From the IMG/VR virus record IMGVR_UViG_3300025676_000667, positions 1 to 30,799 of that record: DNA of 30,799 nt; one strand, given 5' to 3'. The translations under genes were made by a program, and so were the position numbers. Below are positions 2,499-20,498 of this stretch, in pieces. Position 1 is the first letter of the stretch. Each line of letters starts with the position of its first letter. The notes beneath the pieces were generated by a model. It was given only the letters and a program-made list of their open reading frames with translations, searched no databases and was not told the DNA's origin. Source of the DNA: a virus (taxonomy: Duplodnaviria > Caudoviricetes).

Positions 2499-3824
2499 TT
2501 ATCTTTTCGCTGTTTTTCTCTTTTTATACCCTATTTTTTGTTGATTTGCTTTAGTGCCTTTTTTCTCTCTATGTTTTCTTTCTTCTTTTTCTTCTTTCTT
2601 TTTAGCATATTCTTCAGCCTGTCTTTGAATTTCTGCTTGTTTTGTTGCTTCGTGCATCTGGCGAGTAAGTTCTTTATATTGCTCTAGGTTTGCGAGTGCC
2701 CTTTCTTTGTGTTCCTCTGGTATAAGATTTTCATCAACCAACCTCTTACATGCTTCAAGTCCCACATGTGGTTTTCCTGCATAATAAGCAGTTGCACCAA
2801 TTTCATCAAGAATTTGATATTTGTAACAGTCTTCACTTATAAAGAGAATGTCGTTTTGAGGATAAGGAATTTCTAATGCCATTTTTGCAAAGATGTAACC
2901 CAATCGTGGTTTATCGTGAACTTGTCTATACAACCTCGCAATTTGATATAGGGGTTCTGCACGGATTGGTCTATATTCATAACAATCCAAAAATGCTTGT
3001 TGAATCTCCGGCCAAGAGTAATTAAGAATTGCTCTTATTATTCCAATTCTGTAAAGAGAATAATATGCTTCTTCTTCCCAACCACCCATTTCTGCTCTCT
3101 TGATATATGCTTCTAATGATTTCTCATATTGTTGGGAGTCGAAATATGATTGTGCAAGATAAAACTGATATCTAACATTTTCTGGTTCATCTTCTAATGC
3201 TTTCAAAAGCATTTCAGCATCTCTTGTATATTTTTCTACAGTAGTAATTCCGACATTTCTTGCACCTTCTGTTCTTGCAGATACATGATACTCTCCAAAT
3301 ATTCTATCTGTGGTCACTTCTTCGTGGGGTTTACCTTTACATTCTGCATACTCGTGAAGTACTCCAGTATAACACCAATCTTGTCCTGTTCTAAATATTT
3401 GGTTTCTCCACCAAGTGAATTCTTCTCTGCCAATGCGAAGACTGTAACTATCTGCTTCCATCTTTTCTGGGAATTTAAAATCTCCTGTTATGAAATCGTC
3501 TGCATCAATGACCCACGCAAAATCTGCTTTACCATCACAATTTCTTAAAGACTCGGACCTACTTCCCATCTTGCCTGAGTGGTCGCCAAACCCTTTCCAA
3601 TCGGAAAGATATACTTCACCCTCTACACCATGTTCATCAAAGAATTCTTTAATAAGTTCTGGAGTTCCATCGGTTGAACCTGTATCTGTAATGTCGTACC
3701 TGTCAATATATGGAAGCATTGAAGTAAGACAATCTTTAATGATATGTGTTTCATTCTTCACAATCATACAAAGAGTTATTGTCGCTGGTTTTGATACTTT
3801 TTCTATTTTCATAATATTATTCAC
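2499..3824 (-). CDS. GT2 glycosyltransferase with TPR repeats and charged C-terminal tail (likely protein glycosyltransferase)
   Basis: LCMIVKNE...DTGSTDGT, WVIDADD (DxD), YTGVLHE; then helical TPR-like repeats (RYQFYLAQSY, EAYYSLYRIG, RAEPLYQIA). Start may be 3812. Confidence 0.85.
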   Translation of the reverse strand: MNNIMKIEKVSKPATITLCMIVKNETHIIKDCLTSMLPYIDRYDITDTGSTDGTPELIKEFFDEHGVEGEVYLSDWKGFGDHSGKMGSRSESLRNCDGKADFAWVIDADDFITGDFKFPEKMEADSYSLRIGREEFTWWRNQIFRTGQDWCYTGVLHEYAECKGKPHEEVTTDRIFGEYHVSARTEGARNVGITTVEKYTRDAEMLLKALEDEPENVRYQFYLAQSYFDSQQYEKSLEAYIKRAEMGGWEEEAYYSLYRIGIIRAILNYSWPEIQQAFLDCYEYRPIRAEPLYQIARLYRQVHDKPRLGYIFAKMALEIPYPQNDILFISEDCYKYQILDEIGATAYYAGKPHVGLEACKRLVDENLIPEEHKERALANLEQYKELTRQMHEATKQAEIQRQAEEYAKKKEEKEERKHREKKGTKANQQKIGYKKRKTAKR

Positions 3825-4665
3825 TCATTACCGCAGATGTGTTTTCTGCCCAATCCCAATTTAATCTATATTTCTTATTCTGTTCCCAAACAGATTTAAG
3901 AACCAACGGGTCAATTCCGTTTTCTTCCATAGTATATATAAGTGCATTTATATCTTTTGGAAAACAAGTTCCACCGAATCCATATTCTCCATCTGGTCCT
4001 GGGACAGAAGTATGGCTTTCTCCTATTCTAGAATCTGATACCACTGCTTCTATTATTGTATCGTAATTTGTTCCTTTAATATTATCACAAAGAATTTTCA
4101 TCTCATTAAATATCATAACTTTTGATGCAAGAAAACAATTCGCGAAATATTTGGCTGCTTCTGATTCATTTGATTTCATAATATAAACTGGAATTCCTGG
4201 AAAACAATATTCATATATTTTTTCTAAACCATAAGCAATTCTTTTATCTCCGCCTATTACATGTCTATCCGAATTTATAAAATCATGTTCTGCATTTACA
4301 GCAGTCAAAAATTCTGGATTGTGAATTATTTTTAGATGAGGATATTTTTTAACAAGTTTATTAGTAGTTCCTATCGGTACAGTAGATTTAATGATAAAAG
4401 TTCCATCTATTGTAGAAGGAATATCATCAAAGAAATCTTCTAATATAGAAAGATTACATTTTCCGCCATCTACACTAATCATAGGTGTTGGAAGGCATAC
4501 AAAAATATAATCAGAGGTAAGTGTTTCCATATAAGAATGTGTTGATTTGTCTGGGTCTATATCATATATTCGTACTTCTAATTTGTCTTGAAATCCTTTT
4601 GCAATTGCATTACCTACAAATCCATTTCCTATTACGCCAATTGTTGCTTGCATGTTATAATCCAA
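3817..4665 (-). CDS. ugd: UDP-glucose/GDP-mannose 6-dehydrogenase family, short form
   Basis: GNGFVG Rossmann motif, CLPTP, IKSTVP, HNPEFL, catalytic GFGGTCFPKD; lacks the usual C-terminal domain. Start may be 4653. Confidence 0.85.
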   Translation of the reverse strand: MDYNMQATIGVIGNGFVGNAIAKGFQDKLEVRIYDIDPDKSTHSYMETLTSDYIFVCLPTPMISVDGGKCNLSILEDFFDDIPSTIDGTFIIKSTVPIGTTNKLVKKYPHLKIIHNPEFLTAVNAEHDFINSDRHVIGGDKRIAYGLEKIYEYCFPGIPVYIMKSNESEAAKYFANCFLASKVMIFNEMKILCDNIKGTNYDTIIEAVVSDSRIGESHTSVPGPDGEYGFGGTCFPKDINALIYTMEENGIDPLVLKSVWEQNKKYRLNWDWAENTSAVMSE

Positions 4666-5564: not shown

Positions 5565-6412
5565 ATATTCTCCAATATGTAAATTAATTCTTTTGCTCGG
5601 TTTTCACAAGAAAAATTCTTGTGAATTTTATATCCTTCTTTTGAAATATCTTCTATCATATTTTCATTCTGTACCCATTCAATAAGTTCTATTATATCAC
5701 CAAATGAATCATATATCAAACAATTTTTCTTATTTATTAATCCTAATTCTTCATTCATATAACTGTTGTTTGTTAATAGTAGAGTATCACACGCCAAAGT
5801 TTCTATAACTCTATAGGACAATCCATGAGGGTCACCTAAATTTTTATTAAAATGTATATGATATGAATTGATTGCATCGACCATATCTTCACCAATAACA
5901 AAAATGTCTTGTTTCATATTATATTTTTCGGTTAATCTGTCAATAAAATCGTTTCTTTGTGGATTTCTATTTCCACAAAATCCTATCAAATGATTTTTTG
6001 GTATATTATTTTTTTTGATGTGTTCAGTATCTATCCAAGGTTTGAACCAAAAAGAAGGAATACCATTAAATAAATCTCTACTTCCTTTTAAGATTGCATC
6101 ATATTTTCCTTGATTCATTAGATTAATATAAAGTTCTTCTCCTTGGACATGAGCATCACAAGACCATAATAATTTTTTTGTTTTTATAGAACTTAAATCT
6201 AAATGTTGGTGGTACGCTTCCCACAAATCTACAATTAAATCATATGATTCAAAGTCAGGTAATTCACCAACATTACAGTCTGGATGGTTTCTTCCCCACA
6301 CATCACAAACATGTCCTATGTTTCGTATTCCTTTTTGCAGAGTTAAACATTCTCGTAAATGTTTATTTTTTTCGTGCTGTCCACCATCTTGTAATATTAA
6401 AATTCTTTTCAT
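5561..6412 (-). CDS. Putative GT-B glycosyltransferase (CgeB / Glyco_trans_1_2-like)
   Basis: C-terminal 'IGFCG...R...HFNK...SYRVIETLAC..LLLT...I...GY' pattern. Confidence 0.7.
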   Translation of the reverse strand: MKRILILQDGGQHEKNKHLRECLTLQKGIRNIGHVCDVWGRNHPDCNVGELPDFESYDLIVDLWEAYHQHLDLSSIKTKKLLWSCDAHVQGEELYINLMNQGKYDAILKGSRDLFNGIPSFWFKPWIDTEHIKKNNIPKNHLIGFCGNRNPQRNDFIDRLTEKYNMKQDIFVIGEDMVDAINSYHIHFNKNLGDPHGLSYRVIETLACDTLLLTNNSYMNEELGLINKKNCLIYDSFGDIIELIEWVQNENMIEDISKEGYKIHKNFSCENRAKELIYILENI

Positions 6413-7053
6413 TATTTTACCGTAAATATTTTATCTTCAACCCAAGGTTTATCAAAAACTTTTCTAAGAACAACCGTATACTCAAATCTATTAATAATTT
6501 TAGATTCTAAATGCCTTTTTAATAATAATTCTGAATGGAGGGGAATTCCTTCATCCAAATAATTTTCAATTTCATCATAAATGCTACAATAATACTTCAT
6601 ATTTTCTTGAGATGATGCACAAACCATATCAAAAATTCCATTTTCAAAATCACCACCATTGGGTATATTATATTTATCGATATCTAATATAGGAAATTCT
6701 TCTGTATATTTACAATCGAATCTAGTTTTTATTACTGTATCATAATTTCCTTCTAACAAATCATAACATAGTTTTATTTTTCTAAACATGTAAACAGAGA
6801 TTATAGGGTTTGTAATATATGACAGATAATGTGGCATTTCTGTGTTGTAATTTTTGTCCAACACCACAGAGGATTCATCTTCCAATATAAATTTTTTTGG
6901 TTTAATCGTTTCTATTACATCTTCGATATTATCAGAATGATACGAATGCATATACACATCTGCATTTGTTGGTTCTATTATATTTTTTCTTAAAGAGTTC
7001 CAACAAGATAATGCTTCTCTTGTATGTCCAGATAATAATACTGCTGTTTTCAT
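6412..7053 (-). CDS. Putative glycosyltransferase, K.A...SG..R family (paralog 3)
   Basis: MKTAVLLSGHTR, DVYMHSY, YDTVIKTRFD, SELLLKRHL. Start 7053 chosen for the ATGA overlap (track start 7071). Confidence 0.55.
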   Translation of the reverse strand: MKTAVLLSGHTREALSCWNSLRKNIIEPTNADVYMHSYHSDNIEDVIETIKPKKFILEDESSVVLDKNYNTEMPHYLSYITNPIISVYMFRKIKLCYDLLEGNYDTVIKTRFDCKYTEEFPILDIDKYNIPNGGDFENGIFDMVCASSQENMKYYCSIYDEIENYLDEGIPLHSELLLKRHLESKIINRFEYTVVLRKVFDKPWVEDKIFTVK

Positions 7054-7469
7054 TTTAAATATTCGTCCCATAAGTCAGGATAATCTGTACATATTCCTGC
7101 AATTAAATCTATACTTCTTGGAAATTCGTTGTCTACCATGATGCTATCTTTTATTTTATTGCCTGTGAATGCCCAAATCTTACCTTTGCTTGTAAGTGTC
7201 ATTATATCATCCTTATGCCAAAACCAATGTAAATTAGTTTCTTTTAATTGTTCTACTGCTTCTATATTCTTACAATGTAACCACATTTCGTCTGTAAAGA
7301 AATCAAATTTTATATTATATTGTGGTATGTCGTGACCCAACCACCAACCATGTTTGTACCATACATCAACTTCAACTGGATAGTGTTGAATTGCTTCTGT
7401 TATATACATAGGTTCATTCTCTCTATCAGTTCGTCCATTTAAATTTCCTCTATGGGATATTATAATCAT
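7050..7469 (-). CDS. Small PLC-like/glycerophosphodiester phosphodiesterase-fold protein
   Basis: ISHRGN...EN, VEVDVW, LGHD, WLHCKN, GICTDYP match GDPD/PI-PLC-like catalytic His/Glu/Asp motifs. Confidence 0.7.
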   Translation of the reverse strand: MIIISHRGNLNGRTDRENEPMYITEAIQHYPVEVDVWYKHGWWLGHDIPQYNIKFDFFTDEMWLHCKNIEAVEQLKETNLHWFWHKDDIMTLTSKGKIWAFTGNKIKDSIMVDNEFPRSIDLIAGICTDYPDLWDEYLK

Positions 7470-8248
7470 GTGTTTGGATAAATATGATGTTTAATTTTTA
7501 TATCATTTCTTTCTTCAATTTCAACATCGTTATTTAATAGGTATGACCCAAACATATATTCTGCTTTGAACTTCATTGGCGCGCCATTGCCCCAATCAGA
7601 AACTAAAAGTTCTTTTGCAGAAGTAAATATATAATCTTTAAGGTAATCATAATATTCTAAATATAATTTCATAAATTTTGGAGGACCATATGCAAAGGTG
7701 TCGTTTTTATATTGGTCGGGCCCGTGGGCGGGTATGATATTTAAAACATTCAAATCTAATTCTTCTGGTAGATTTTCAATCATTGAATCGAATCGAATTC
7801 TAAACACACAATCATAATCAAATATATTTTCTAAAAATTCTGATGAACCCTTCTTAATCATGTACCATTGCTTTAATATATTTTCCATATTAAAAAGTAT
7901 CCAATATGTTTCCTCTGTAATATTTGTACCCAATTCCATGATACGAGTTTCTAAAGAATTTGGAATGTAATCCTCATAATTATAAATTTCTTTATATTTC
8001 GGTTCATACATTGAAAAACAAGAAATGTCTGGATTCAAATCTTTATATCTCTTATTTCCTGGAATATTATATGATGTATTTTCTATAATGTATTTGTTTT
8101 CTTTTCTTACATTTAAAAATTCATCTTGGTTATCCCATGTACTACAAAACAAATCACAATCATATTTATCCAGTATATTAGATTTTAATGATTCATAGGT
8201 TTTGTCGTATCCTCTTAAATGACCACTAAGAACTATAGCACATTTCAT
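7466..8248 (-). CDS. Putative glycosyltransferase, K.A...SG..R family (paralog 2)
   Basis: MKCAIVLSGHLR, DLFCSTW, YDCVFRIRFD, NDTFAYG...MKLY. Confidence 0.55.
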   Translation of the reverse strand: MKCAIVLSGHLRGYDKTYESLKSNILDKYDCDLFCSTWDNQDEFLNVRKENKYIIENTSYNIPGNKRYKDLNPDISCFSMYEPKYKEIYNYEDYIPNSLETRIMELGTNITEETYWILFNMENILKQWYMIKKGSSEFLENIFDYDCVFRIRFDSMIENLPEELDLNVLNIIPAHGPDQYKNDTFAYGPPKFMKLYLEYYDYLKDYIFTSAKELLVSDWGNGAPMKFKAEYMFGSYLLNNDVEIEERNDIKIKHHIYPNT

Positions 8249-9380
8249 TTTCTATTGCCTTTCTTATCTTTAAAGCACCCGCAGTTGTTCCATCAGTATC
8301 GCCGTGTATTGCTCCGCCGACATTTGCCATATAATCTATACCGAACTTTTCATTAATTGGTTTGATTAATTCTGCTTTCATTCCACAACTTAATGCGGGT
8401 ACTACATTTCTATCTCTAAGAACTTTTAAGGTGATTTTTAAATCTTCTTCATCATCACTTTTATATCCTCCCCACATTCCCGAATGAATAGTATCCACGC
8501 CTACCAATCCGGCAATATCACAAACTACATTCCAATCAACACCAAACCTATGAGTAGAGTCTGTAAATACTTTATCCCCACTCTTTTGAAAATGTATGTT
8601 GATAGGCAAATCTAATTTACGAACAGAATTATATGCACCAAGACCACACCACACATTTAGATGAACACCATTTCCACCATTCTCGTGAACAAACTTTACT
8701 CTGTTTAAAATGTCGTGTGGGTCACTGTTTACACAGAATGAATATACTATATTTCTGCCACAATTGTTTATGTAATCTGTGATGAGTTCTGTTCTATCTT
8801 CCAAAGAACAGAAAGCAGGATTTGATAAAATCTCATCTTCTTTTATAAAATCTACACCACCATCAACCAATTGTTTAGTCATATCTAAAAGTTGCTCTGG
8901 AGATAATCCAATTTTTGGTTTAATGATTGAACCAAATAATGGTTTGTCGTGTTGTCCAGTAAATTCTCTCATTCCAGTTATACCATATTTTGGACCAAGA
9001 AACTTATCTTCTACGCACTTTGGAAAAGAAATATCAACCAATCTACATTTAGTAATAATATCAATATCCATTTGCCCGCCCATTAATTGACACATCAAAT
9101 GAGAGATACCATCATTATCCCAATCAGTATTAACAACAGGAAATGCAATTTTGACTATTCCTTCTGTTTTGGATTCTAGTTCTTTTTCATCTCCGATTAT
9201 TATGCAAGAATTTCTCTCAAATAATTCATCAGTTTCCCATGCATTTCTTACATTGGGATTTCCTACACTTTGGCCTATTGCAAGATTCCACGCGGCATCT
9301 CTTAAAGAAGTTTTTGACCCCATTTCATATGTTGCAACCACATAATCATTAACATTTACTTGTTCTCTATAAAATTTCAT
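8226..9380 (-). CDS. RuBisCO-like protein (form IV-like RLP)
   Basis: IIKPKIGL (K175/K177 equivalents), GGVDFIKEDE (carbamylated-Lys/Mg motif), DTIHSG, PALSCG, NVGGAIHG. Start 9380 chosen for the ATGA overlap (track start 9389). Confidence 0.9.
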   Translation of the reverse strand: MKFYREQVNVNDYVVATYEMGSKTSLRDAAWNLAIGQSVGNPNVRNAWETDELFERNSCIIIGDEKELESKTEGIVKIAFPVVNTDWDNDGISHLMCQLMGGQMDIDIITKCRLVDISFPKCVEDKFLGPKYGITGMREFTGQHDKPLFGSIIKPKIGLSPEQLLDMTKQLVDGGVDFIKEDEILSNPAFCSLEDRTELITDYINNCGRNIVYSFCVNSDPHDILNRVKFVHENGGNGVHLNVWCGLGAYNSVRKLDLPINIHFQKSGDKVFTDSTHRFGVDWNVVCDIAGLVGVDTIHSGMWGGYKSDDEEDLKITLKVLRDRNVVPALSCGMKAELIKPINEKFGIDYMANVGGAIHGDTDGTTAGALKIRKAIENEMCYSS

Positions 9381-10012
9381 TTGTACCACATTGCTCCTAT
9401 TCCAAAATCATTACCACTACAATATTTTTTACTTTCAAATATACTATCATCTACTGCTTCAAATAGGACATATGGTCCTGGATGAGAATGAACATCATGA
9501 AAAGCAACAATTCCTTTTTTCGATAAAAATGGCATTACATAATTTTCCCATTCGTGCAAAACAGCATTAACTGAATGCCATCCGTCAATAAAAATAAAAT
9601 CGAATTCTTTAATGCCAAGTTCTTTTATTTTTGCATGTATAGTTTCTGTGTCAGTACTATTGCTTTGGTGAAAATGAATATTGTTTTCATCATCTTGAAT
9701 TGAACGATGTTCTATATCTACGCCCAAATATACAGTATCTTTATTTTTCATTTCTTTTAAAATTTCTGTAGATATTCCTGCATTGCTCGGCGCATGATGT
9801 TTGCCCATTACTCCTATTTCAAATATTGCTTTGCACTCATCCTTTATAGATGAAAATAAATCTCTAAATTTTGTAGCAACACATGGGGTAAAATGTTCTG
9901 GACAAGATATATTTTTCATATTTACAGAATCCAAATTATCTTTATCTTTTCCAATAGTAGGGGTAAATTTTAATCCTTCTATTTTTTTGTTTTCAATAAT
10001 ATCAATTTTCAT
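9377..10012 (-). CDS. Class I SAM-dependent methyltransferase (Methyltransf_24-like, probable sugar O-methyltransferase)
   Basis: IFEIGV, YLGVDI, FDFIFIDGWHS, GIVAFHD motifs. Confidence 0.8.
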   Translation of the reverse strand: MKIDIIENKKIEGLKFTPTIGKDKDNLDSVNMKNISCPEHFTPCVATKFRDLFSSIKDECKAIFEIGVMGKHHAPSNAGISTEILKEMKNKDTVYLGVDIEHRSIQDDENNIHFHQSNSTDTETIHAKIKELGIKEFDFIFIDGWHSVNAVLHEWENYVMPFLSKKGIVAFHDVHSHPGPYVLFEAVDDSIFESKKYCSGNDFGIGAMWYK

Positions 10013-10340
10013 TAAATTTCTCTTTAATTATTTTATCTCCAGGAACAGATGGTGTTTTTATTACTAGTACAGTACAATCTTCTAAAAAGTCTGGGTCTGC
10101 AACTTCATTCTTTTCTATAATAAAAATATCACCTTCGTTTAATTCTTTCTTTTGTATTATCATTTTACCTTTTATTAATAAGTTATATTCATCACTAAAT
10201 TCATGATAGTGAGGCGCCCAATATTCGCCCTTCTTGTGTGTCAGAACTCCAACTTCAAAATCTTTTGTTCTGAGAACAGATGGTTCAAAATCTCCAATAA
10301 ACCAACCTCTTGTCATATCGTCTATCTTATGCATTTTCAT
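10002..10340 (-). CDS. Small cupin-fold protein (possible sugar isomerase/epimerase)
   Basis: GWFIGDFEP, HYH...EYNLLIKG, L.EGDIF.I cupin signature; 112 aa. Confidence 0.75.
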   Translation of the reverse strand: MKMHKIDDMTRGWFIGDFEPSVLRTKDFEVGVLTHKKGEYWAPHYHEFSDEYNLLIKGKMIIQKKELNEGDIFIIEKNEVADPDFLEDCTVLVIKTPSVPGDKIIKEKFNEN

Positions 10341-11046
10341 TTTTAATATATTCTCTCAAATCATCGGGTGTACCAACGGAATTGTGTTGGTAATTTGGTA
10401 TGTGGTATATTCCGACCTTCTTTCCACTTTCTATCATATGATTGTAACTCAAAGACACATAATATTCTCCATTGGGTGCTTTATCATTCAACTTTACCAT
10501 TCTATCATAACTTTCAATGAAGTCAATCCCTCTTTTCCAAAAATGTATACCATTTAATGAAATATCACTAATGACTTCTTTTTCTTTTAATTCTTCTACA
10601 TAACCAAATTTATTTAATCTGGCATAACTATTTTTTGTTGTTTGAGATGTATATGTTACTATTACACCATCATAATCAGAAGCATTGCAACTAGAAATGA
10701 AATTAGAACCCGACCACCACATAATTTGGTCACAATTAGCAACCACCAGATTATCGTTATTATTAATATACTCTCTTACTAGATTGCATGTAGAAGCAGG
10801 TCCATCGGTAACATAATCAATTTCTTTGATGACACAATCTGGCTTTATTTTTTTTAACACTTGATTTATATTTTCAGAATATTCAGTATTTCTGGTGATA
10901 AAAATATATTTTCCATCTATATCCAAAGATTCTATTGCTTTCTGTATCATTGGGATACCATTTATATCAATTGATGGTTTTGGTTTATCGAATCCATCGT
11001 CTTGAAATCTCTTTCCAAGACCTGCCATTGGTATTATTATATTCAC
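10327..11046 (-). CDS. Sugar-phosphate nucleotidyltransferase (NTP_transferase family)
   Basis: IIIPMAGLGKRF...PKP.I.ING.PMI, TDGPAST, VANCDQ, EKEVISD, NGEYYV, VGTPDDL. Confidence 0.88.
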   Translation of the reverse strand: MNIIIPMAGLGKRFQDDGFDKPKPSIDINGIPMIQKAIESLDIDGKYIFITRNTEYSENINQVLKKIKPDCVIKEIDYVTDGPASTCNLVREYINNNDNLVVANCDQIMWWSGSNFISSCNASDYDGVIVTYTSQTTKNSYARLNKFGYVEELKEKEVISDISLNGIHFWKRGIDFIESYDRMVKLNDKAPNGEYYVSLSYNHMIESGKKVGIYHIPNYQHNSVGTPDDLREYIKNENA

Positions 11047-11774
11047 ACCAATCTCCCTAATATATTTTCTATAGTTTCTTCAGGAGGATATGGTTTAGGA
11101 AAATGAATATCAGCCCTATCACCCGCCATACTTAATAATTTAACTTGTCCTCTATATTCTCGTATCATGTCAGAAGAATACATTTCATCCAAGCACCATT
11201 TTCCTCCACTCTCAACACTAACCTCTTTTAAAAACGAAGCAGGATTGTCTGAATACCCGTTATATTTGTTAGAATAATCTAAAGAATTAAACTTTTTAAT
11301 TTCATCCTTAAACGAATCGTCAAATTGTAATACTTCCTTGAATGTTGAACCTTTTGCCACATGATAATATGAAGGAACTGTAGATGTTCCGTCCCAAAAA
11401 GAATTAATTGGGTTATATCCTGTTGCATTCATTACAACATACGAAGATTCATCAAAAGATTCAATTTTATTATTAAAATAATCAATGTCTAGAATACACA
11501 TATCCATTCCACTCGTCATACAAGTTTTGTCTGGGTAAAAAGATGATACCCAAAAATATCCCCATATTGCAGACAAATAAGTAGGAATATCATCACCACA
11601 GTATATTCTATGAACATCTCCATATTCTTCGGAGAGTTCGATATCTTCTTTGCCGGTGTAGAGAATGGCGCTGTTCAGATTTAACTCGGTTTTTAAGAAC
11701 TTGGAAATGGGTTTCCAAAATCTTGTATATTCATCTTTTTCGTTTACCGAAAATGTAATCATATCTATTTTCAT
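11043..11774 (-). CDS. Hypothetical protein, possible GT-A glycosyltransferase
   Basis: Translationally coupled within the glycan cluster; YTRFW, CMTSGMDM (degenerate DxD), YYHVAKG, WCLDE. Confidence 0.4.
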   Translation of the reverse strand: MKIDMITFSVNEKDEYTRFWKPISKFLKTELNLNSAILYTGKEDIELSEEYGDVHRIYCGDDIPTYLSAIWGYFWVSSFYPDKTCMTSGMDMCILDIDYFNNKIESFDESSYVVMNATGYNPINSFWDGTSTVPSYYHVAKGSTFKEVLQFDDSFKDEIKKFNSLDYSNKYNGYSDNPASFLKEVSVESGGKWCLDEMYSSDMIREYRGQVKLLSMAGDRADIHFPKPYPPEETIENILGRLV

Positions 11775-11784
11775 AATTTACCTC

Positions 11785-12453
11785 TTATTCGCTCGGGCTT
11801 TTACCCATACTATTATCAATATTCCAGTAACATTCACCTCTTATTATATTTATTCCTTCTAAATGGTCTTTTAAAAGAAGTTCTGTATAGAAATCATTTC
11901 TTTTTTGTGCATGTTCGACAGCACTATTAAAAAAATCACAATAGTGTATCATATTTTTATAATCTCCTATTGCAAATGTGTCTACTATACCATATCTTGG
12001 GTCTGGATTTCCGTCCATATTATAAGGAATAAATATTCCATTATTTAATTCGTTTAAATTTAATTCAAGAGTTGTTCCAAAGGTGAAGTCAAATCTTATT
12101 TTGGCTATAAAGTCGTATGAATCATTAATGAATGTGCTTGCTAAATATATTTTTCTTAATTGATAATACAATCTAGGAGCAATAGAAGGTGGAGAACCAT
12201 GGACCAACAGTTCACATTCTTTCCATTCTCTCGGAACTTCCTCTATATCATTTCTCTTTTCCAAGACACAAACTTTAGGATTTAGGCAATCTATTATGTT
12301 GTTTACTTCATCATGAAAATATGTGTGAACAAAACAATCTACTTCAGCCCTTTCTTTTAATGGGTTTATTAAATTTTCTAAATGGTTTTCTTGATTTTCT
12401 CTTTTTGCAAAAGACCTAATATCACCAGAATATATTAATGCACATTTAGTCAT
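11785..12453 (-). CDS. Putative glycosyltransferase, K.A...SG..R family (paralog 1)
   Basis: MTKCALIYSGDIR, DCFVHTY, YDFIAKIRFD, VDTFAIG...MIHY, TELLLKDHL. Start 12453 chosen by paralog alignment (track start 12483). Confidence 0.55.
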   Translation of the reverse strand: MTKCALIYSGDIRSFAKRENQENHLENLINPLKERAEVDCFVHTYFHDEVNNIIDCLNPKVCVLEKRNDIEEVPREWKECELLVHGSPPSIAPRLYYQLRKIYLASTFINDSYDFIAKIRFDFTFGTTLELNLNELNNGIFIPYNMDGNPDPRYGIVDTFAIGDYKNMIHYCDFFNSAVEHAQKRNDFYTELLLKDHLEGINIIRGECYWNIDNSMGKSPSE

Positions 12454-13210
12454 TTTTGTCACCCAAGAATAAAAGAAGGTCATTTACTATTTTTTCGTGT
12501 GTATAATGCTTCATTGCATTACTTCCAACAACATTAATATTATGATATAAAGTTTGTTCTGTTTGATATCTGACTGTGTTTAATTTATATGATTTTGTAT
12601 AAATGTGTACTTCGGACTTCCAAACATCGTTCATTAAAAAATATTTATCATCATAAAATCTATCCAACAAATAATCAATATTTGCAATATATGGACTATC
12701 TCCCATACAGGCCTCACCCAATTTGTCTATCACGGTCTGTATATCATTATACCATATTGTTAATCCGTCCCGTTCAAATTTTCTTTCAACATCACAACAT
12801 CCTGTAACATTTGGGTCGCAATTATCTACATGAAGCATTTTTAAATCTTTTTCATAAAATAGGTCAATAGAAGATTTTAATAAATCATATGATTTTGTCA
12901 CACAAAACCCATCATCCTGACAAAAGAAAATAGAATCTGCTTCCAAATTCTTCATACACTCGATAGCATTCTTAACACACAATGGATATGTAATTTCATT
13001 TTGTTTTAATATTATTAAATTATCATAATATGGTTTTAAATATTTTTCATTTATATGTTCCACATATTCGTCACTGCTATTGTGAAAGGAAAATATATTA
13101 GCCTTAAAATTGTTACGAAACTGGTGGTCTAATTTATTTTCTTTTCTTAGTTTAAATAGTATTTCTCTATCATCACCGTATGTTTGAGTAAAACTACAAG
13201 TATTATACAT
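12446..13210 (-). CDS. Hypothetical protein, possible GT-A glycosyltransferase
   Basis: IFFCQDD acidic motif at a GT-A-like position; cluster context. Start 13210 (ATG) preferred to track start 13228. Confidence 0.4.
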   Translation of the reverse strand: MYNTCSFTQTYGDDREILFKLRKENKLDHQFRNNFKANIFSFHNSSDEYVEHINEKYLKPYYDNLIILKQNEITYPLCVKNAIECMKNLEADSIFFCQDDGFCVTKSYDLLKSSIDLFYEKDLKMLHVDNCDPNVTGCCDVERKFERDGLTIWYNDIQTVIDKLGEACMGDSPYIANIDYLLDRFYDDKYFLMNDVWKSEVHIYTKSYKLNTVRYQTEQTLYHNINVVGSNAMKHYTHEKIVNDLLLFLGDKND

Positions 13211-14324
13211 TATTAATAACCTTTGCAATTCTTTCTACATCTTCTCTGGTCATAAAAGGATGCATCGGTAAACTCATCAATTGTTCTGCATATAAACGAG
13301 TATTGGTATTATTCCAACCCTTATCTTCATATATCTTTGTCTGCTCTATAGGTATTGGGTAGTGTATACCAGATTGGATGTCGTTATCATTAAGTTTAGA
13401 CATTACTTCATCTCTATTTAAATCCAAAAGACGAACACAATAGATATGATAAGTATGGCGTCCACAATAAGATGCCTTTTTTGGTTTGATGATTTTGTCG
13501 TTTTGAATTAATTCATCATACCAAGATGCTATCTTTTCTCTATTTTCGTTCCATTCATTTAGGTGTTTTAGTTTTTCATCTACTATAATTGCCTGAATTG
13601 AATCTAATCGGTTATTGTAGCCCTTTCTTTCATAATAATACTTCTCTACTGCTCCCCAATTTTGAAGAAGTTTTAGAGTATCATAGAAATGTTTGTTATT
13701 TGTTGTAATAACTCCTGCATCACCGGCCGCACCAAGATTTTTTCCAGGATACATTGAAAAGGCAGACATGTGACCAAATGTTCCAACTGGTCGTCCTTTG
13801 TTTGTTGTTGTACCGTGTGCTTGCGAACAATCTTCAATTACCCAACAGTTGAACATGCGAGAAAGTTTCATAATTTTTTCTATATCACATGCACTTCCAT
13901 ATAAATGAACTGGCATAATTACACATTCGTCCCAATCTCCCCTTCGTTTTGAAAGAATATCTTCTAATGTGTTCATATCCATTTGGTAATATTCATCACA
14001 ATCTATTAGGATAAATTCTGCATTTGGTAAGGCCATTTCTGCTCCTAAAAGGGTAGCAATAAATGTGTTTGCGGGGACAATGATTCCTACTTTACCTTCT
14101 AAATTTAAAGCCTCCACACAAAGTTTTAATGCATCTGTTCCGTTTGATACACCAACCGCATAATCCGTTCCAATATATTGTGCAAAGTTGTTTTCAAATG
14201 TGTTTACATCTGGACCATTAATGTAGGATGAACTATTAAATAGATTATCTATTCTTGGTAGGGCATCATCTTTGATTACTTCCCATTGTTTTCCTAAATC
14301 ATTAAATAAAATTCTATTCACCAT
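13203..14324 (-). CDS. DegT/DnrJ/EryC1/StrS PLP-dependent sugar aminotransferase
   Basis: VSNGTDAL, PANTFIAT, PVHLYG, IEDCSQAHG, FSMYPGKNLGAAGDAG (PLP Lys), GYNNRLD, LSLP-like MSLPMHP. Confidence 0.95.
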   Translation of the reverse strand: MVNRILFNDLGKQWEVIKDDALPRIDNLFNSSSYINGPDVNTFENNFAQYIGTDYAVGVSNGTDALKLCVEALNLEGKVGIIVPANTFIATLLGAEMALPNAEFILIDCDEYYQMDMNTLEDILSKRRGDWDECVIMPVHLYGSACDIEKIMKLSRMFNCWVIEDCSQAHGTTTNKGRPVGTFGHMSAFSMYPGKNLGAAGDAGVITTNNKHFYDTLKLLQNWGAVEKYYYERKGYNNRLDSIQAIIVDEKLKHLNEWNENREKIASWYDELIQNDKIIKPKKASYCGRHTYHIYCVRLLDLNRDEVMSKLNDNDIQSGIHYPIPIEQTKIYEDKGWNNTNTRLYAEQLMSLPMHPFMTREDVERIAKVINNV

Positions 14325-15123
14325 ATTCTAAAATCTCCATGACGCTCATAGTTAAATCTTCTTGATTAAAATCATCATCTATAAAACTATTTATAGAGTT
14401 TTTTAGAGGAGAATTCGTTTTCGGAAAATCTATCACTTCACCATTGAATGTTATTGTATTTGTGGTATCGTCCCATGTCAAAAATCCTGCATCAAACTCA
14501 AATATACATTTTCTGTCTTTTCTTCCATATTCCCAACTAGAATGAAGAACAGCATCGAAATTTTTATATTGTAATATGCCTATACAGGTATCACTTACAA
14601 AACTATTTTTATTTCTTTTGTAGAGATTCCAATTAATTGATGTTGGTTGTTCTTCGCAAATATATTGTATGATTGAAACATCATGAGATGCCAAATCCCA
14701 TTTGGCTGACACATCTTTTCTTTCTGGTCCAGAATTTAATCTATTCATAGATAAATTTCTTAACCCACCATATATCTCATTGTTGTATAAATTCTTGATA
14801 AAGTTCACAGCATCGTTGAAGGTGAATATCCAATCAACGAAAAGGCTTGCTTTATTTTGTTTGGCAATTTGATAAAGGACACTACATTCTTTTTTGTGTA
14901 TTGCTAACGGCTTTTCACAAAAAACATCTATTCCTCTTGACAGAAGGTCTTTAACAATCTGAAAGTGTGTAACCGTTGGAGTTATGACAAAAACTTTGTT
15001 GCAGGAATTTATTTCTTCTTGGCTGCCTATTCCTTCTATCGGGTCGTATATTACGACATCTTCATTCAAATTTGAATGAATTATCTTTCCCCAATATCCA
15101 TAACCAACTATTCCAATTTTCAT
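14314..15123 (-). CDS. Gfo/Idh/MocA NAD-dependent oxidoreductase (sugar 3-dehydrogenase-like)
   Basis: GIVGYGYWG, ITP..TH, VFCEKPLA, WDLASHD. Confidence 0.9.
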   Translation of the reverse strand: MKIGIVGYGYWGKIIHSNLNEDVVIYDPIEGIGSQEEINSCNKVFVITPTVTHFQIVKDLLSRGIDVFCEKPLAIHKKECSVLYQIAKQNKASLFVDWIFTFNDAVNFIKNLYNNEIYGGLRNLSMNRLNSGPERKDVSAKWDLASHDVSIIQYICEEQPTSINWNLYKRNKNSFVSDTCIGILQYKNFDAVLHSSWEYGRKDRKCIFEFDAGFLTWDDTTNTITFNGEVIDFPKTNSPLKNSINSFIDDDFNQEDLTMSVMEILEYGE

Positions 15124-15992
15124 TTAATTACCCTCTGTTTAATAAAATCAACCCAGTACTTTTGCTTCATTATAACATCAACATTAGAAAAATCAAACTC
15201 TAAATCAAATATATTCTCATTTATATCAGTCCATTCATCTACAAATAATATCGGAATATTGTGTGTCTTTGCCATTATTTCTAGTCCAGATTCCCACCAA
15301 TGGGAAAAAGTTCTTTTCATAATGGGAACTGTGTGTCTTATCAAGCATTCCCATGTCCGGCCGGGGTCATTTGCCCACGATGCACCAGGAAGAACTATAC
15401 AAAATTTAGATTTGTTTATATTTTCTATATGTGTATCATAGTCTAGTTTAAATTCTGGGTTGTCACATATGAACTGATTTTGTTCAATTTCTTTCATAAA
15501 GGATGGTCTTGCACTATGCCCACAATATTCTGCGGCATGGTGTGGATAATATAGTTTATCTTTTTTATCTTTAAATTCTATTCTATTTTCTACTACTTTA
15601 TTCAATTCTTCTGTAGTTGGTTCATTTTCTCCAAATCCCCAAGGAATAGGAAACAGTTTAGTATTATTGAAGTGTAACTTGGCATTCAAGTTAGTACAAA
15701 ATATATTATTTATCTTTAAATCATCAAGATATCGGTGATTAATAACATAATCTCCCTTGTGGATTATTAAATTTATTGGGTGTTCCAATTTCTCTAAAAC
15801 TCGCTTAAAATGTTCATGTTGAATATAATCAACTCTACAAAAAACCAAATCATTTTCTTTTATTTTTTCTATATCAGAAAGAAAATTATAAAGTGATTCT
15901 CTTGCGTTTGGGCCCTGGTCAACTTCATAATTTAATATGTGGTCACACATGTTCATAAAATGAACATTTCTGATAAAATCTTTATTCATCAT
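15120..15992 (-). CDS. Putative glycosyltransferase (exostosin/GT47-like C-terminal motif)
   Basis: SKFCIVLPG...DPGRTWECL...TVPI...PILFVDEW pattern; PIPWG. Confidence 0.6.
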   Translation of the reverse strand: MMNKDFIRNVHFMNMCDHILNYEVDQGPNARESLYNFLSDIEKIKENDLVFCRVDYIQHEHFKRVLEKLEHPINLIIHKGDYVINHRYLDDLKINNIFCTNLNAKLHFNNTKLFPIPWGFGENEPTTEELNKVVENRIEFKDKKDKLYYPHHAAEYCGHSARPSFMKEIEQNQFICDNPEFKLDYDTHIENINKSKFCIVLPGASWANDPGRTWECLIRHTVPIMKRTFSHWWESGLEIMAKTHNIPILFVDEWTDINENIFDLEFDFSNVDVIMKQKYWVDFIKQRVIK

Positions 15993-16390
15993 ATAGCAGG
16001 ATTTCCTTTTACTGTCATTCCGTCTGGAACATCTTTAGTTACAACAGAACCTGCTCCAATAACAACATCATTTCCTATATTTACAGGTAAGATGGTTGCA
16101 TTTGACCCTATTCGTACTCGGTCGCCAATTTTTGTTTTCTTCATTTTCCAATCCTTTATGGATTTTGAATCTGAAAAAACATCATTAATGAACATGACTC
16201 CATGACCCACAAAACAATCTTCTCCTATATCAACCCCCTCACATATAAAAGTATGACTGCTTATTCTAGTGTTTTTACCAATATTACTGTCCTTTTGAAT
16301 CTCAACAAAAGGACCAACAAACACACCATCGCCCAATTCACACCCATAAATATTTACTAATTGTGGGTGTGGTATATTTACATTATTCAT
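15989..16390 (-). CDS. Hexapeptide-repeat (left-handed beta-helix) sugar N-acetyltransferase
   Basis: VGPFVEIQ, ISSHTFICEGV.IG..CFVGHGVMFIND, IGSNATILPV.IG, IGAGSVVTKDVP, GNPA. Confidence 0.93.
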   Translation of the reverse strand: MNNVNIPHPQLVNIYGCELGDGVFVGPFVEIQKDSNIGKNTRISSHTFICEGVDIGEDCFVGHGVMFINDVFSDSKSIKDWKMKKTKIGDRVRIGSNATILPVNIGNDVVIGAGSVVTKDVPDGMTVKGNPAI

Positions 16391-17094
16391 GTTTGACTTG
16401 CCTCCAACATTACAGCATACTCTTGTGTTGGATTATCATTTTCATCATATACTTGACCAACAAAATCATTCCAATCTTTTCTGGGTTTAGGAAATGGAAC
16501 TCCATTAAAATATTCAATTGAATTATTTAGTCTATTCAACAATGGAGTTCCAACAAAAAATTCATCATGGGACAATGCATTATTTGAAATCTTTGGCCAA
16601 ACATGCTCCCTTAAAAAGTTTTGGTCTACTTGTATGAAATTACCTTTACTGTATTCATTTATAGATTCTTCTATACCTTTGAGAATTCCGTTTCTGCATC
16701 CCCACATACCACCAAGAATTTGTGTGCCATGATATGGGTGGTCCCTCATTATATGGAAATCTTTATCGGACTCTAACCATTCGTTTACAGCATAAACTTC
16801 TCGTTCAGATACTCTTGAATCTGTATCTCTAGACAGAACTACATCATCACTATCCGCAGAAAGAAATCTCCAAAACATTCCTGTCCAATCACCTTCTTCA
16901 TCCATCAAAATAACTTCAGTGTTTGAAACTTCATTCAGTTTATCTAGAATGTCTTGTGGTACACTTCTGCCACAATAAAAACGACCAATCCAACCAGAGT
17001 AAAGTTCTTGAACCAACTCTGCATTCTTTATTGCTCCTATTGTGTATTTGGGGTCATCGCCCCAAAGACTAAAACTAACTATTTTGTTTGACAT
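16387..17094 (-). CDS. Hypothetical protein, putative glycosyltransferase
   Basis: IVSFSLWG..P.Y..GA..N, MFWRF, SRDTDSR (DxD), HIMRDHP.H, GGMWG, DQ.FL. Start 17094 (ATG) preferred to track start 17118. Confidence 0.55.
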   Translation of the reverse strand: MSNKIVSFSLWGDDPKYTIGAIKNAELVQELYSGWIGRFYCGRSVPQDILDKLNEVSNTEVILMDEEGDWTGMFWRFLSADSDDVVLSRDTDSRVSEREVYAVNEWLESDKDFHIMRDHPYHGTQILGGMWGCRNGILKGIEESINEYSKGNFIQVDQNFLREHVWPKISNNALSHDEFFVGTPLLNRLNNSIEYFNGVPFPKPRKDWNDFVGQVYDENDNPTQEYAVMLEASQT

Positions 17095-18127
17095 TAGACT
17101 CCTTGATTTTCTTTTCAATTTCTTCTTTTACTCTGTCCCTCAATGGTCTTGCGTATTCTTTTGCTCTCTCATAATTTTCATCAATATATGGCTTCATCTG
17201 TTCATATGTTTCTGGAGTAATCTGATTGCACAATTCTATAATATCGGATTCGCTATCAACGATTATCATTCCTCTTATATCAAAGAAATCACCAATGTTC
17301 GGACATCCCCAATAAATTGGAACTGTCTTTGTGATTAATGCATCGATTAGTTTTTCAGAAAAGTAGTTGTCAACAGAAGTACTTTCGATTGAAATATGAA
17401 ATTGAGAACTAAAAAGTTTTGCTTTATCATCTTTTGGTAAAAGGAACATTGCATCATCGGCACTCCAAGACATGGGGTCCCTTTGAAAATTCATTTGTCT
17501 GTACATTTCCATACTTTTGATATCCATTCTGACGGGATATCTTGTACTGCTATAAAATAGAGTAGGATTCTTAATTAGCAACCTTTTAACAAAAGCATCT
17601 TTTCTTTTGTTATATCCTTCTAAATCTCTGCTATGGAATGTGCAAAGAAAACTTATTTCAAATCTTTTGTTGTCGTGTAAGTTTTCTAATGATATGTCAT
17701 ATGAGCCCAGTCCGTCTGGATGGTTTATGTTTTCTAAGTTCTTATTTAACCAAGTAGAGCCATATGGAAACATTACTGCATTTTTACACTTATCTAAAAT
17801 TTCTACATCTGTTGTTAATATTAAATCATATGCATGTTTCCATTGAAGTACCATATCTATAGGTTCTCTGTTTGGAGAAGTAACTGGTTCTGTGGTTGTC
17901 ATATAAACTTTAAATGCATCTGGATTGTCAAAGTGTAATGAATTTGGAGTAGATTTACCATCATCATATGCACCCATGAATGGGTGTTCTTTTTTCCATT
18001 CTACAAAATCAACAGAACCCATATTAGTATTTTTAAACCTACACACATCTATTTCTACAGGAATATCAAACATCATTGGTTCATCCCCAAACAAATAATA
18101 AGAATTAAAAGAAATTGCTCTATGCAT
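17075..18127 (-). CDS. GT10-like (alpha-1,3/4-fucosyltransferase-like) glycosyltransferase
   Basis: FHISIESTSVDNYFSEKLIDALITKTVPIYWG matches the GT10 F.l.fEN...DY.TEK...A....VP...G motif. Confidence 0.75.
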   Translation of the reverse strand: MHRAISFNSYYLFGDEPMMFDIPVEIDVCRFKNTNMGSVDFVEWKKEHPFMGAYDDGKSTPNSLHFDNPDAFKVYMTTTEPVTSPNREPIDMVLQWKHAYDLILTTDVEILDKCKNAVMFPYGSTWLNKNLENINHPDGLGSYDISLENLHDNKRFEISFLCTFHSRDLEGYNKRKDAFVKRLLIKNPTLFYSSTRYPVRMDIKSMEMYRQMNFQRDPMSWSADDAMFLLPKDDKAKLFSSQFHISIESTSVDNYFSEKLIDALITKTVPIYWGCPNIGDFFDIRGMIIVDSESDIIELCNQITPETYEQMKPYIDENYERAKEYARPLRDRVKEEIEKKIKESNVKQNS

Positions 18128-19004
18128 TTAGTTCCCCTATCTTTTCATATATCATGTCATCTGCTAACTTCATATTTTTTACTCTCTCAAAATTGTCTGC
18201 TATTGCTTCTTTTCTATTATGGTATTCTGACTCATCAATGTCTTTAATAGTTTTGCACATATCTTCTATACTTCCTTCAAGAAATATTATACCTTCTGTG
18301 TTAAAATAATCACCTATTGACTTTGGTCCATAGTAAAGAGGAACTGTACCTGTTGCAAAACAATCTGTGATTTTCTCTGTAAAATATGTGTCGTACACAT
18401 CATTTTCCACAACAACAGAAAACATATAATCATTTAGTGCTTCCGATTTATCATGCCAAGGACTTGTATGTCCTTTAATATGACACCTAGGTCTATGTCC
18501 TAAAGGAATGTCAGTTATAGTTCCATAAGAATGTACTACATCTTTTATTTTATCATATAATTCATGTCGTATCTCATGACCTTTACACATTTTTTTATTA
18601 GAAGAAATGAAAGATATTAATCTAGCCTTATCGTATATTTTATAGTTCTTTTCTGGAATCCATGGCAGATTGCTTCCCGCAAGAGAAAAATTAATCTTTT
18701 CATGTTTATCAACCAATTCTTTTTCACAAGTAAAAATTCCATCATAAGCATCTACAAGAGCATTTAATACATTTTCATTATCAAATGCTTGTCTAAGTAT
18801 AGGACAAATGGCTCTAGATTCACAAAACCACGCATATCGTTTTTTACCATTTGCTCTGGGGTACATACATCCTTCTGGTATTGTATTGTCCATCCAAATC
18901 TCAATCTCTTGTTCTGTGTCTGTCCATGTAAAATTTTCTGGAGTTCTATTAGAACAAGAAGATTGATGATGACTGAATGGTATTCCTCTGCCTTGAATTT
19001 TCAT
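18120..19004 (-). CDS. GT10-like (alpha-1,3/4-fucosyltransferase-like) glycosyltransferase
   Basis: SFISSNK, YMFSVVVENDVYDTYFTEKITDCFATGTVPLYYG. Start 19004 chosen for the ATGA overlap (track start 19028). Confidence 0.78.
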   Translation of the reverse strand: MKIQGRGIPFSHHQSSCSNRTPENFTWTDTEQEIEIWMDNTIPEGCMYPRANGKKRYAWFCESRAICPILRQAFDNENVLNALVDAYDGIFTCEKELVDKHEKINFSLAGSNLPWIPEKNYKIYDKARLISFISSNKKMCKGHEIRHELYDKIKDVVHSYGTITDIPLGHRPRCHIKGHTSPWHDKSEALNDYMFSVVVENDVYDTYFTEKITDCFATGTVPLYYGPKSIGDYFNTEGIIFLEGSIEDMCKTIKDIDESEYHNRKEAIADNFERVKNMKLADDMIYEKIGELNA

Positions 19005-19639
19005 TCTGCATCCCCTGGAGATTGCCATTTTATTAAATCTTCATCAATACCAAGATTTCTTAAAGATTCCATTTTACCTTCAGAGTCTGCAAGTCCCATA
19101 GTTATACAAGTATTTTCATTGGTATATCCTGGCCATGTGCAATATTCTCCACCGACCATTGCAACTTTCATCTGTTTAACAAACATAGGAATTAATTGAA
19201 AAAGAGGTTCGTGGTCAAAAATACCTTTATCGTTTTCAATAATATCTCTCGTTGTGGAAATCCATGCATGTATAAATTCTTTGGCTTTTGGAGTGTTGCC
19301 AAAATACATTGGAGATGCTCTTACTCCAGTTATGTTAGTATTAGATGATGTAATTCCCATATCTGTATCATCATCAAAAGAATCAAAAATATCTAACGGT
19401 TTGTGTAGTTTGCTGTCAATATCCATCCATAAAACAGGACGATTGAGTTCTTCCATTGTATCTAAAATAAATTGTGGTTTGCTAAGACAGTTCAGTTGGT
19501 ATGTACCAAGAGATTCTTTCTCTTTAATGTGATATGGAATGCTCAGAGATTCACATTCTTTTATGATTCTATCAGCATTATCACTGTAATATGTTCTGTC
19601 TTCTATGTCACTATAGAAACTTATAAGCACCGTGTTCAT
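19001..19639 (-). CDS. Putative GT-A glycosyltransferase
   Basis: KPQFI, VLWMDIDS (DxD), ASPMYF, DH motif; GAGG SD upstream. Confidence 0.65.
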   Translation of the reverse strand: MNTVLISFYSDIEDRTYYSDNADRIIKECESLSIPYHIKEKESLGTYQLNCLSKPQFILDTMEELNRPVLWMDIDSKLHKPLDIFDSFDDDTDMGITSSNTNITGVRASPMYFGNTPKAKEFIHAWISTTRDIIENDKGIFDHEPLFQLIPMFVKQMKVAMVGGEYCTWPGYTNENTCITMGLADSEGKMESLRNLGIDEDLIKWQSPGDAE

Positions 19640-20105: not shown

Positions 20106-20498
20106 TTATGGATTTATACCGCCGCCAGTAAGGTATACTCTCATTTGTTCAATTTCTTCATCGTTTAACAAGTCCATTATCTCTGTTGCTTTTGTATTGG
20201 AGTATCCATAATACTCTTTTACCGTTTCTAGTTTGTCAGTAATTTCTTTTTTCTGCCATTTACTGAATCTCTTTCGTTTTCTTATTGCTTCTCTATAATA
20301 ATCAAATTGCATCTTCTTATCTGCGGAAGAAAATCTGTTTATCTCATTTACATGAATAACCGTATCTATAAAATAAGATAAACACCTATTAATTATAAAT
20401 GGTGTATACTTCTTCTCTACCTGTTCATCCTCTGTGTCCATTAGAGGTTCTTTGGTATAGTTTATTGCATTAAGATATTCACCCAGTTTCATCTTCAA
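20106..20498 (-). CDS. gp62: T4-like clamp loader small subunit gp62
   Basis: YLNAINYTK, YTPFIINRCLS.F.DT...NE.N, MQFDYY...IRKRKRFSKW, VKEYYGYS..KA, GG end; directly upstream of regA. Confidence 0.93.
   Translation of the reverse strand: MKMKLGEYLNAINYTKEPLMDTEDEQVEKKYTPFIINRCLSYFIDTVIHVNEINRFSSADKKMQFDYYREAIRKRKRFSKWQKKEITDKLETVKEYYGYSNTKATEIMDLLNDEEIEQMRVYLTGGGINP

Follow-up and report, generated by a model that had tools for sequence, protein, structure and literature searches.

Introduction

Phage-encoded RuBisCO-like proteins (RLPs) were reported in 2019 by Jaffe et al. (PMC6389311), who describe about 80 phage 'Form IV-like' sequences that group with Beckwithbacteria and leave their function open. 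The RLP of Rhodospirillum rubrum is a methylthioribulose 1-phosphate (MTRu-1P) 1,3-isomerase, interconverting methylthio-pentulose 1-phosphate and 5-phosphate in the methylthioadenosine (MTA)-isoprenoid shunt (PMC6302742, PMC4958253). In the capsule field, PMC13552107 reports that bcbE and bcbG mutants of Pasteurella multocida lose the fructose branch and that BcbE, BcbF and BcbG are the sole genes assigned to fructose addition. Here we describe the RLP gene of IMG/VR virus record IMGVR_UViG_3300025676_000667, a stretch of 30,799 nt (the window, meaning the whole of the DNA analyzed) that covers the genome of a marine T4-like phage only partially; the phage origin is read from its T4-like replication genes (RegA, sliding clamp, clamp loader, gp46-like). 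The RLP lies in a run of nine genes and recurs across viruses and cells beside a nucleotidyltransferase (NTase)-fold protein, in a module where comparison with cultured cyanophages and plasmids suggests that it takes the place of a beta-PGM/CbbY-like HAD protein.

The RLP and its clade

The RLP matches PF00016 (E 7e-37) and falls under the cut-off of every NCBIfam RuBisCO or RLP model. Its top profile score is to form III RuBisCO (TIGR03326, 184 bits with a cut-off of 497), and the other carboxylating models PRK04208 and PRK13475 gave 169/438 and 108/489 bits. Scores against the MtnW enolase models TIGR03332 and NF007095 were 113/514 and 149/409, and the OiaX model NF042437 gave 143/700, with H294 and K334 not kept (residues are given in spinach numbering; K201 is K180 of the 384-aa window protein). 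The predicted structure (predicted local distance difference test, pLDDT, 88) has the RuBisCO fold, with a template modelling (TM) score of 0.87 to Pyrococcus form III.

We collected 2520 relatives among 4112 candidate proteins, a count that takes in distant RuBisCO forms. One scan found viral relatives on 255 contigs, 80 of which were kept for locus analysis, and 47 cellular loci came from genome bins and isolates. Cellular carriers include SAR11, Patescibacteria (Beckwithbacteria among them), DPANN archaea, Verrucomicrobia, Legionellaceae and Azospirillum, and the 47 still count L117 and L118 (possibly also L081 and L083), which look like mis-binned T4-like contigs. Although binned under Bacteroidota/Balneola, the L117 and L118 contigs have genes for PhoH and PD-(D/E)XK and resemble DNA of a T4-like phage. 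Relatives were absent from the 50,697 GenBank phage records searched, and hence there is no cultured phage model. The plasmid RLP matches belong to other clades, at about 31% identity or less, and were set aside.

A quick IQ-TREE of 76 rows recovered an RLP clade of 63 rows (SH-aLRT 100), separate from form I, DPANN form III-type, Bacillus MtnW-type RLP, OiaX and other RLPs. This tree draws on 18 of the 80 viral loci, omits rows shorter than 300 aa (including L137) and does not sample forms II, IV-Photo or the R. rubrum RLP. The Beckwithbacteria sequence L092 (46% identity) falls inside the clade, and the window RLP very probably belongs to the same clade as the 'Form IV-like' phage and Beckwithbacteria RLPs of Jaffe et al. 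(2019, PMC6389311). The biosynthetic reading of an earlier note on this DNA, made from the sequence alone, draws support from the place of the RLP outside the methionine-salvage and OiaX groups tested: it scores below the MtnW cut-offs, it sits in a separate clade in the tree, and mtnK or mtnA was found in none of the 127 RLP loci (L001-L127).

Two observations concern the ends of these proteins. Most relatives end in a helix that is missing from the window protein and a handful of its near kin (window positions 8226-8270), and P0123 (724 aa) is a clade RLP fused to a C-terminal domain that looks glycosyltransferase-like by eye and has no Pfam match.

Genes that travel with the RLP

The linkage of the RLP to other genes goes far beyond chance. 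Many RLP loci are near-duplicates or cut short, and counted over all of them the NTase is present in 78/80 viral and 43/47 cellular loci. The other partners are a small GDPD-like protein (65/80 viral and 28/47 cellular, or 31/47 with the long-form model), a cupin (66/80 and 14/47), the paralog family DUF7796/phrog_13607 (41/80 and 9/47) and a methyltransferase (37/80 and 2/47). Anchoring the search in reverse, on the window NTase, found an RLP in 54 of 58 loci. Two of the three long RLP hits are RLP-NTase-cupin fusions (P0121, P0122). Kinase-like matches occur in 8/80 viral loci, and a reductase is not a regular neighbour.

The conserved core is the NTase and the RLP, usually with the small GDPD-like protein and often with the cupin. 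The recurrent linkage proposed in the earlier note holds for this tie, which extends over viruses, bacteria and archaea and includes fusions, while the methyltransferase, at the counts above, and the unknown gene of the window (0/80 viral loci) are accessory and fall outside the conserved unit. Two other parts of that proposal did not survive: the cupin is dispensable, and the 'phage cassette' is not phage-specific. Judged from sequence, the combination that recurs in viruses, bacteria and archaea is a predicted NTase plus RLP, to which a short GDPD-like protein and putative DUF7796 or WavE transferases are usually added.

Cellular copies lie in surface-glycan settings, with GtrA, GT2, PMT-type, WavE and LicD neighbours. 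In five Legionellaceae genomes, out of 24 in the genus set, the RLP and NTase stand within about 3 kb of a LicD phosphotransferase, as a minimal pair beside LicD in L121 (6639-9868) and also in L122, L124, L126 and L298. The module-type GDPD was not found in three of these five LicD-bearing genomes when they were searched. LicD close to an RLP-NTase pair that has no GDPD fits a nucleoside diphosphate (NDP)-linked 1-phosphate product.

Many cellular modules (L104-L110, L095-L101, L131, L132) also contain a second NTase-fold protein that has lost the G-x-G-x-R motif. Treating this second NTase and the cupin as strict alternatives fails, as several loci have neither.

Alternation of the RLP with a HAD protein

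In cultured cyanophages and on several plasmids, members of these NTase, GDPD-like and transferase families occur in modules that lack the RLP and carry instead a beta-PGM/CbbY-like HAD, in many cases as a fusion with the NTase. We scanned for the swap by anchoring on two NTases close to both versions, taking all 28 viral loci and, from 510 metagenome loci, the 80 best. Of these 108 loci, 52 have only the RLP, 46 only the HAD, 3 both and 7 neither; grouped by NTase identity, the same categories number 17/27/1/1 at 90% and 4/21/1/0 at 80%. A HAD is found in 1/80 viral and 1/47 cellular RLP-anchored loci, and none is present in the 30.8-kb window, which covers only part of its genome. RLP-linked and HAD-fused NTases reach 68-70% identity and are mixed within one supported clade, favouring similar substrates for the two versions. 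Taken together, these patterns suggest that the RLP and the HAD are alternatives in one module. The claim that the product is a novel sugar is weakened by this result, since the HAD swap suggests that the product may be an ordinary ketose made by a new route.

Several points weigh against a clean exchange. A GDPD-anchored scan, which used a single GDPD-like protein as query, agrees in its counts (9/27/1/17), but the mutual exclusion becomes weaker as loci are dereplicated (P 0.004, 0.045 and 0.33). In the lineage L322-L324 a HAD-NTase, a cupin and the RLP follow one another, both complete copies of the HAD retaining its DxD motif, and both versions stand side by side in L020/L206/L243 and in L085. 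Kin loci share labels, so P values overstate the number of independent swaps. The closest swap evidence also comes from a cupin-free NTase group; the window NTase belongs to the cupin-linked branch and is only 38% identical to a HAD-fused one, and its substrate may therefore differ.

Some HAD modules add a phosphoribulokinase (PRK)-like kinase and a class II aldolase fold (L264-L267, L271, L133), which fits the donor-supply model set out below; against that model, PRK occurs in 0/49 HAD loci of the NTase-anchored set. In L264-L267 and L271 (around 3200-4650) these form a single phage gene, the PRK-like kinase fused to the class II aldolase fold, directly before the HAD-NTase and GDPD. A PRK-like gene 40% identical to the phage one adjoins a form III-type RuBisCO in the DPANN genome G008 (L142, 920-1450). 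A Rhizobium plasmid RLP located 4.6 kb from a HAD module was rejected as a candidate, being part of an mtnK/mtnA operon whose proximity is coincidental.

The nine-gene run and its products

Gene calls show the nine genes of the run intact, without internal stops and all on the minus strand, in the order and with the overlaps first described. Neighbours overlap at seven of the eight junctions, and the only gap, of 10 bases, lies between par1 and the unknown gene. The features are as follows.

11785..12453, minus strand: par1, candidate GT-A-type glycosyltransferase of the DUF7796 / phrog_13607 family
11043..11774, minus strand: unknown phage protein, possibly GT-A-like; accessory, not RLP-linked elsewhere
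10327..11046, minus strand: NTase, GTG start, nucleotidyltransferase-fold of the 4EVW / BcbE-like type; core RLP partner
10002..10340, minus strand: cupin, small, with conserved H44, H46 and E51 as a likely metal site; optional partner
9377..10012, minus strand: methyltransferase, class I S-adenosylmethionine type (PF13578, E 4e-8); accessory, probably for glycan O-methylation
8226..9380, minus strand: RLP, ATG start, 384 aa, of the 'Form IV-like' phage clade
7466..8248, minus strand: par2, candidate GT-A-fold glycosyltransferase
7050..7469, minus strand: GDPD-like, 139 aa, GDPD / PI-PLC-like phosphodiesterase; usual core partner
6412..7053, minus strand: par3, candidate GT-A-type glycosyltransferase, phrog_13607

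RNA data from four runs of one study gave six short contigs (151-266 bases) over par2/GDPD, the RLP, the methyltransferase and the cupin, too few to demonstrate transcription.

The NTase keeps the G-x-G-x-R ... P-K-P signature of sugar-phosphate nucleotidyltransferases, and such enzymes are its best matches, with 4EVW the best in the PDB (E 8e-14). At 27-28% identity it resembles E. coli capsule genes that stand directly before TIGR01689 EcbF-BcbF phosphatases and an APH-like kinase, and these BcbE-position genes form their own branch in the NTase tree. The tie of this NTase type to fructose-branched capsules, raised in the earlier note, thus holds indirectly, through this likeness and the bcbE and bcbG mutants. 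Against pressing it further, the likeness was measured on E. coli BcbE-position genes and not on P. multocida BcbE, and the E. coli loci L287 and L288 are known here from their genes alone. An identification of L288 as K52-like was dropped, as the part of PMC5974469 available to us mentions neither K52 nor fructose. Of four EcbF-type capsule loci, two have paralog-family domains, one has a WavE-like protein and one has neither. These loci have the kinase and no GDPD-like gene among the hits, and the HAD and RLP modules mostly show the reverse; no EcbF/BcbF HAD and no BcbG-like kinase were found in the 30.8-kb window. The E. coli DNA searched has no match for the HAD-type NTase and the cupin, so no link to the xylulose O-antigens O95/O97 could be drawn, and a 2019 E. 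coli review found no NDP-xylulofuranose genes in the relevant O-antigen clusters.

The GDPD-like gene has no Pfam match itself, and its family profile matches GDPD structures (best E 2e-8). The protein keeps H6, R7, E33, D35 and H46, corresponding to the H-R-G, E-x-D and second His motifs, in 139 aa as against about 240 aa for a complete barrel; long forms of the family match PF03009, and the short form had no plasmid match. The cupin has weak Pfam matches (E 8e-4 and 3e-3) and a weak likeness to KdgF (E 0.09).

All three paralogs match phrog_13607 and have weak pairwise likeness (par1/par3 27%). PF25072 (DUF7796) is found in 33 of 55 family members, not in window par2 itself, and the family has an invariant DxD-like motif, R152-x-D154, plus D183. 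The paralog sequence profile had no match in the PDB. The par2 model (pLDDT 82), however, has a glycosyltransferase GT-A fold, its best match being GT6 BoGT6a (Z 12.2, root-mean-square deviation 3.3, 184 residues aligned), with a Foldseek E of 6e-6 against structures, in agreement with the initial assignment of the paralogs as transferases. The unknown gene has no Pfam, NCBIfam or PHROG match; its nearest named Atlas clusters are GT8/GT6 at 0.94 with low shared-feature counts, which makes this a lead only.

Active site and proposed pathway

The active site was surveyed in 273 distinct sequences of the RLP clade, with positions taken from alignment to form I/III rows. K175, K177, K201, D203, E204 and G381 are invariant in all 273 and S379, G403 and G404 nearly so, while four positions are replaced in all 273 (E60G, N123G, H294Q and K334Y). 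Because E60, N123, H294 and K334 are lost while the Mg/carbamate core is kept, the RLP is predicted to be unable to fix CO2; by its residues it should bind Mg via a carbamate, hold a C1 phosphate and enolise its substrate, without those needed for carboxylation. At R295/H298/H327, the second phosphate site, 197 sequences have K-D-H, 39 have K-D-Q and 29 have S-A-Q. From the Asp in this degenerate site, and from the branch that has lost the site altogether, we infer that the substrate bears a single phosphate.

The module most probably supplies a donor for glycan decoration, in a glycan-precursor role. We give about an even chance to the RLP standing in for the HAD as the source of a monophosphorylated ketose. 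Both versions would then deliver a ketose with a phosphate at C1 only. The HAD would remove or move the far phosphate, and the RLP, by Mg/carbamate-dependent enolisation, would walk the carbonyl along the chain, converting xylulose 5-phosphate (Xu5P) or ribulose 5-phosphate (Ru5P) to pentulose 1-phosphate. This would be the hydroxyl analogue of the R. rubrum 1,3-isomerase reaction between MTRu-1P and methylthioxylulose 5-phosphate (MTXu-5P), and by that analogy we tentatively propose pentulose 5-phosphate to pentulose 1-phosphate as the exact reaction. The cupin, where present, may adjust the substrate or product as an isomerase or tautomerase, and the NTase would form an NDP-ketose. GDPD and PI-PLC enzymes act via cyclic phosphates, and the GDPD-like protein could shift the phosphate from C1 to the anomeric C2 via a 1,2-cyclic phosphate, standing in for the BcbEFG kinase. 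The kinase-free route would run from ketose 1-phosphate through the NDP ester, 1,2-cyclic phosphate and ketose 2-phosphate to the NDP-ketofuranose, from which the DUF7796 paralogs would pass the ketofuranose on to a glycan, either on the virion or in the infected cell. One kind of NTase would thus be fed by three solutions: the BcbEFG kinase and phosphatase, the HAD with the GDPD-like protein, and the direct carbonyl shift of the RLP. The full picture, in which phages, giant viruses, SAR11, the candidate phyla radiation (CPR) and DPANN recruited the RuBisCO fold as a one-step carbonyl-walking isomerase, in place of kinase and phosphatase steps, for a kinase-free NDP-ketofuranose route to the donors of ketose branches, with DUF7796/WavE ketosyltransferases, is possible though on the unlikely side.

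Some features of the RLP do not favour such an isomerase. The usual second base, H294, is replaced by Gln; Lys stands at R295 in 240/273 sequences, which leaves some room for a bisphosphate substrate; and the RLP falls outside the clade of the isomerase-type stand-in L172 (an RLP adjoining transketolase, on a long branch in the quick tree).

The RLP might instead make or rearrange a C-C bond, by aldol chemistry with dihydroxyacetone phosphate or an acyloin-type shift, yielding a branched or unusual sugar phosphate and thus a novel sugar that differs from the HAD module's, with a related NTase reused. Residues K334, E60, N123 and H294 serve C-C chemistry on the RuBisCO fold, and the loss of all four, along with the closeness of the NTases across the two versions, leaves this unlikely. 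It draws on the decarboxylases and transcarboxylases of branched acids among characterised RLPs, on the clade's own invariant residues (Q at S61, N at T65, Q294, Y334 and C380), on the class II aldolase-fold genes in some sister modules, and on L322-L324, where the HAD and RLP occur together as expected for two sugars.

Phosphate elimination would also make the HAD needless, which brings in a bisphosphate substrate, ribulose 1,5-bisphosphate or fructose 1,6-bisphosphate, on which the RLP would act as a C3 epimerase or phosphate eliminase with the cupin tautomerising the enol. The Lys at R295, the His at H327 in 205/273 sequences and the KdgF likeness of the cupin fit this scheme. We nevertheless consider it quite unlikely, given the Asp at H298 in 236/273, the site wholly lost in the S-A-Q branch, the many carriers that have no cupin and the lack of a reductase as regular neighbour.

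The 'NTase' could also be a ketosyl transferase, in a pathway with no nucleotide sugar where the donor would be a sugar phosphate, such as a cyclic phosphate, produced by the RLP together with the GDPD-like protein. The RefSeq label for the NTase family is 'glycosyltransferase family 2', as BcbE-type proteins are annotated GT2; KfoE has been published as a fructosyltransferase; and in P. multocida no gene beyond BcbE, BcbF and BcbG is assigned to fructose addition. All of this counts against an NDP-ketose. The kept G-x-G-x-R ... P-K-P signature, the best matches to sugar-phosphate NTases and the presence of separate GT-A proteins point the other way. LicD chemistry leads to a CDP (cytidine diphosphate)-type donor, which the LicD neighbours in Legionellaceae then imply, and we judge the transferase reading very unlikely. 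Finally, a role in host metabolism (carbon fixation or methionine salvage), with the RLP placed in the glycan island by chance, as its best profile and the 'ribulose-bisphosphate carboxylase large chain' label that sources give it would have it, is extremely improbable in view of the four residues replaced throughout, the 127 loci free of mtnK/mtnA, and the near-obligate NTase linkage and fusion.

The surrounding glycan island

The run is enclosed by a larger glycan island with GT2, GT10, GT47-like, Ugd, Gmd/Fcl-type epimerase, DegT and hexapeptide acyltransferase genes, all neighbours on the minus strand where positions are given here. A Ugd-type dehydrogenase, DegT aminotransferase, Gfo/Idh/MocA oxidoreductase and hexapeptide acyltransferase lie at 3817-4665, 13203-15123 and 15989-16390, a set resembling the WbpA/B/E/D route to 2,3-diacetamido-uronic acids. 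GDP (guanosine diphosphate)-fucose synthesis and transfer are the likely tasks of a Gmd/Fcl-type pair and two GT10-like genes at 17075-19028 and 22386-24298. Elsewhere in the window are a collagen-like Gly-X-Y repeat protein adjoining tail-fibre-like genes (808-1872), a GroES-like (Cpn10) gene with clamp-loader genes on one side and GT2 on the other (20479-20796), and a protein that by eye is glutamine-synthetase-like with an N-terminal thioredoxin-like CxxC domain (26750-28252).

Comparison with known systems

If the proposed role is true, it would give a function to an abundant RLP clade unexplained since 2019 and place a RuBisCO-fold enzyme in glycan-donor biosynthesis rather than in salvage or catabolism. 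Viral 'rbcL' genes of this clade should then not be counted as carbon-fixation genes, and the work would bear on how ketose branches enter bacterial glycans. The earlier note knew of no described phage RLP-dependent glycan pathway; phage RLPs were in fact published in 2019 (PMC6389311), while for the pathway the remark stands, as our literature search, poor in subscription journals, found no paper linking this clade to an NTase or a glycan pathway. A search for a described fructofuranosyl nucleotide donor likewise found nothing relevant.

As in the 'Form IV-like' clade of Jaffe et al., the sequences examined here are divergent RLPs of Myoviridae-type phages and Beckwithbacteria with key residues unlike those of known form IV. 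The available text of that account proposes no pathway and does not analyse NTase, GDPD or HAD genes, and the range of carriers is wider here, with SAR11, DPANN, Verrucomicrobia, Legionellaceae and Azospirillum. MtnW, OiaX and form III RuBisCO have a common fold and Mg/carbamate motif with the window RLP at 26-30% identity, but it is below their family cut-offs and outside their clades. The R. rubrum RLP resembles our proposal in its pentulose 1-phosphate/5-phosphate interconversion and its pairing with a cupin, whereas the window RLP has no mtnK/mtnA context, has Gln at H294 with K177 kept, lies in a biosynthetic setting and belongs to a different clade, with L172 standing in for the R. rubrum protein in the tree.

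The BcbE/BcbF/BcbG type of module, known from P. multocida type B and related capsule loci, has an NTase-fold protein that is probably homologous, to judge from the BcbE-position genes (27-28%), with DUF7796-like or WavE-like domains nearby, and differs in having an EcbF-type HAD and APH-like kinase where the window has the RLP and GDPD-like protein. The modules of cyanophages (B3, S-CAM9) and of rhizobial and Azospirillum plasmids use the same NTase, GDPD-like and transferase families, often in the same order, with a beta-PGM/CbbY-like HAD where the window has the RLP. The RLP clade was thus already published, and what is added here is its alternation with the HAD in one NTase module.

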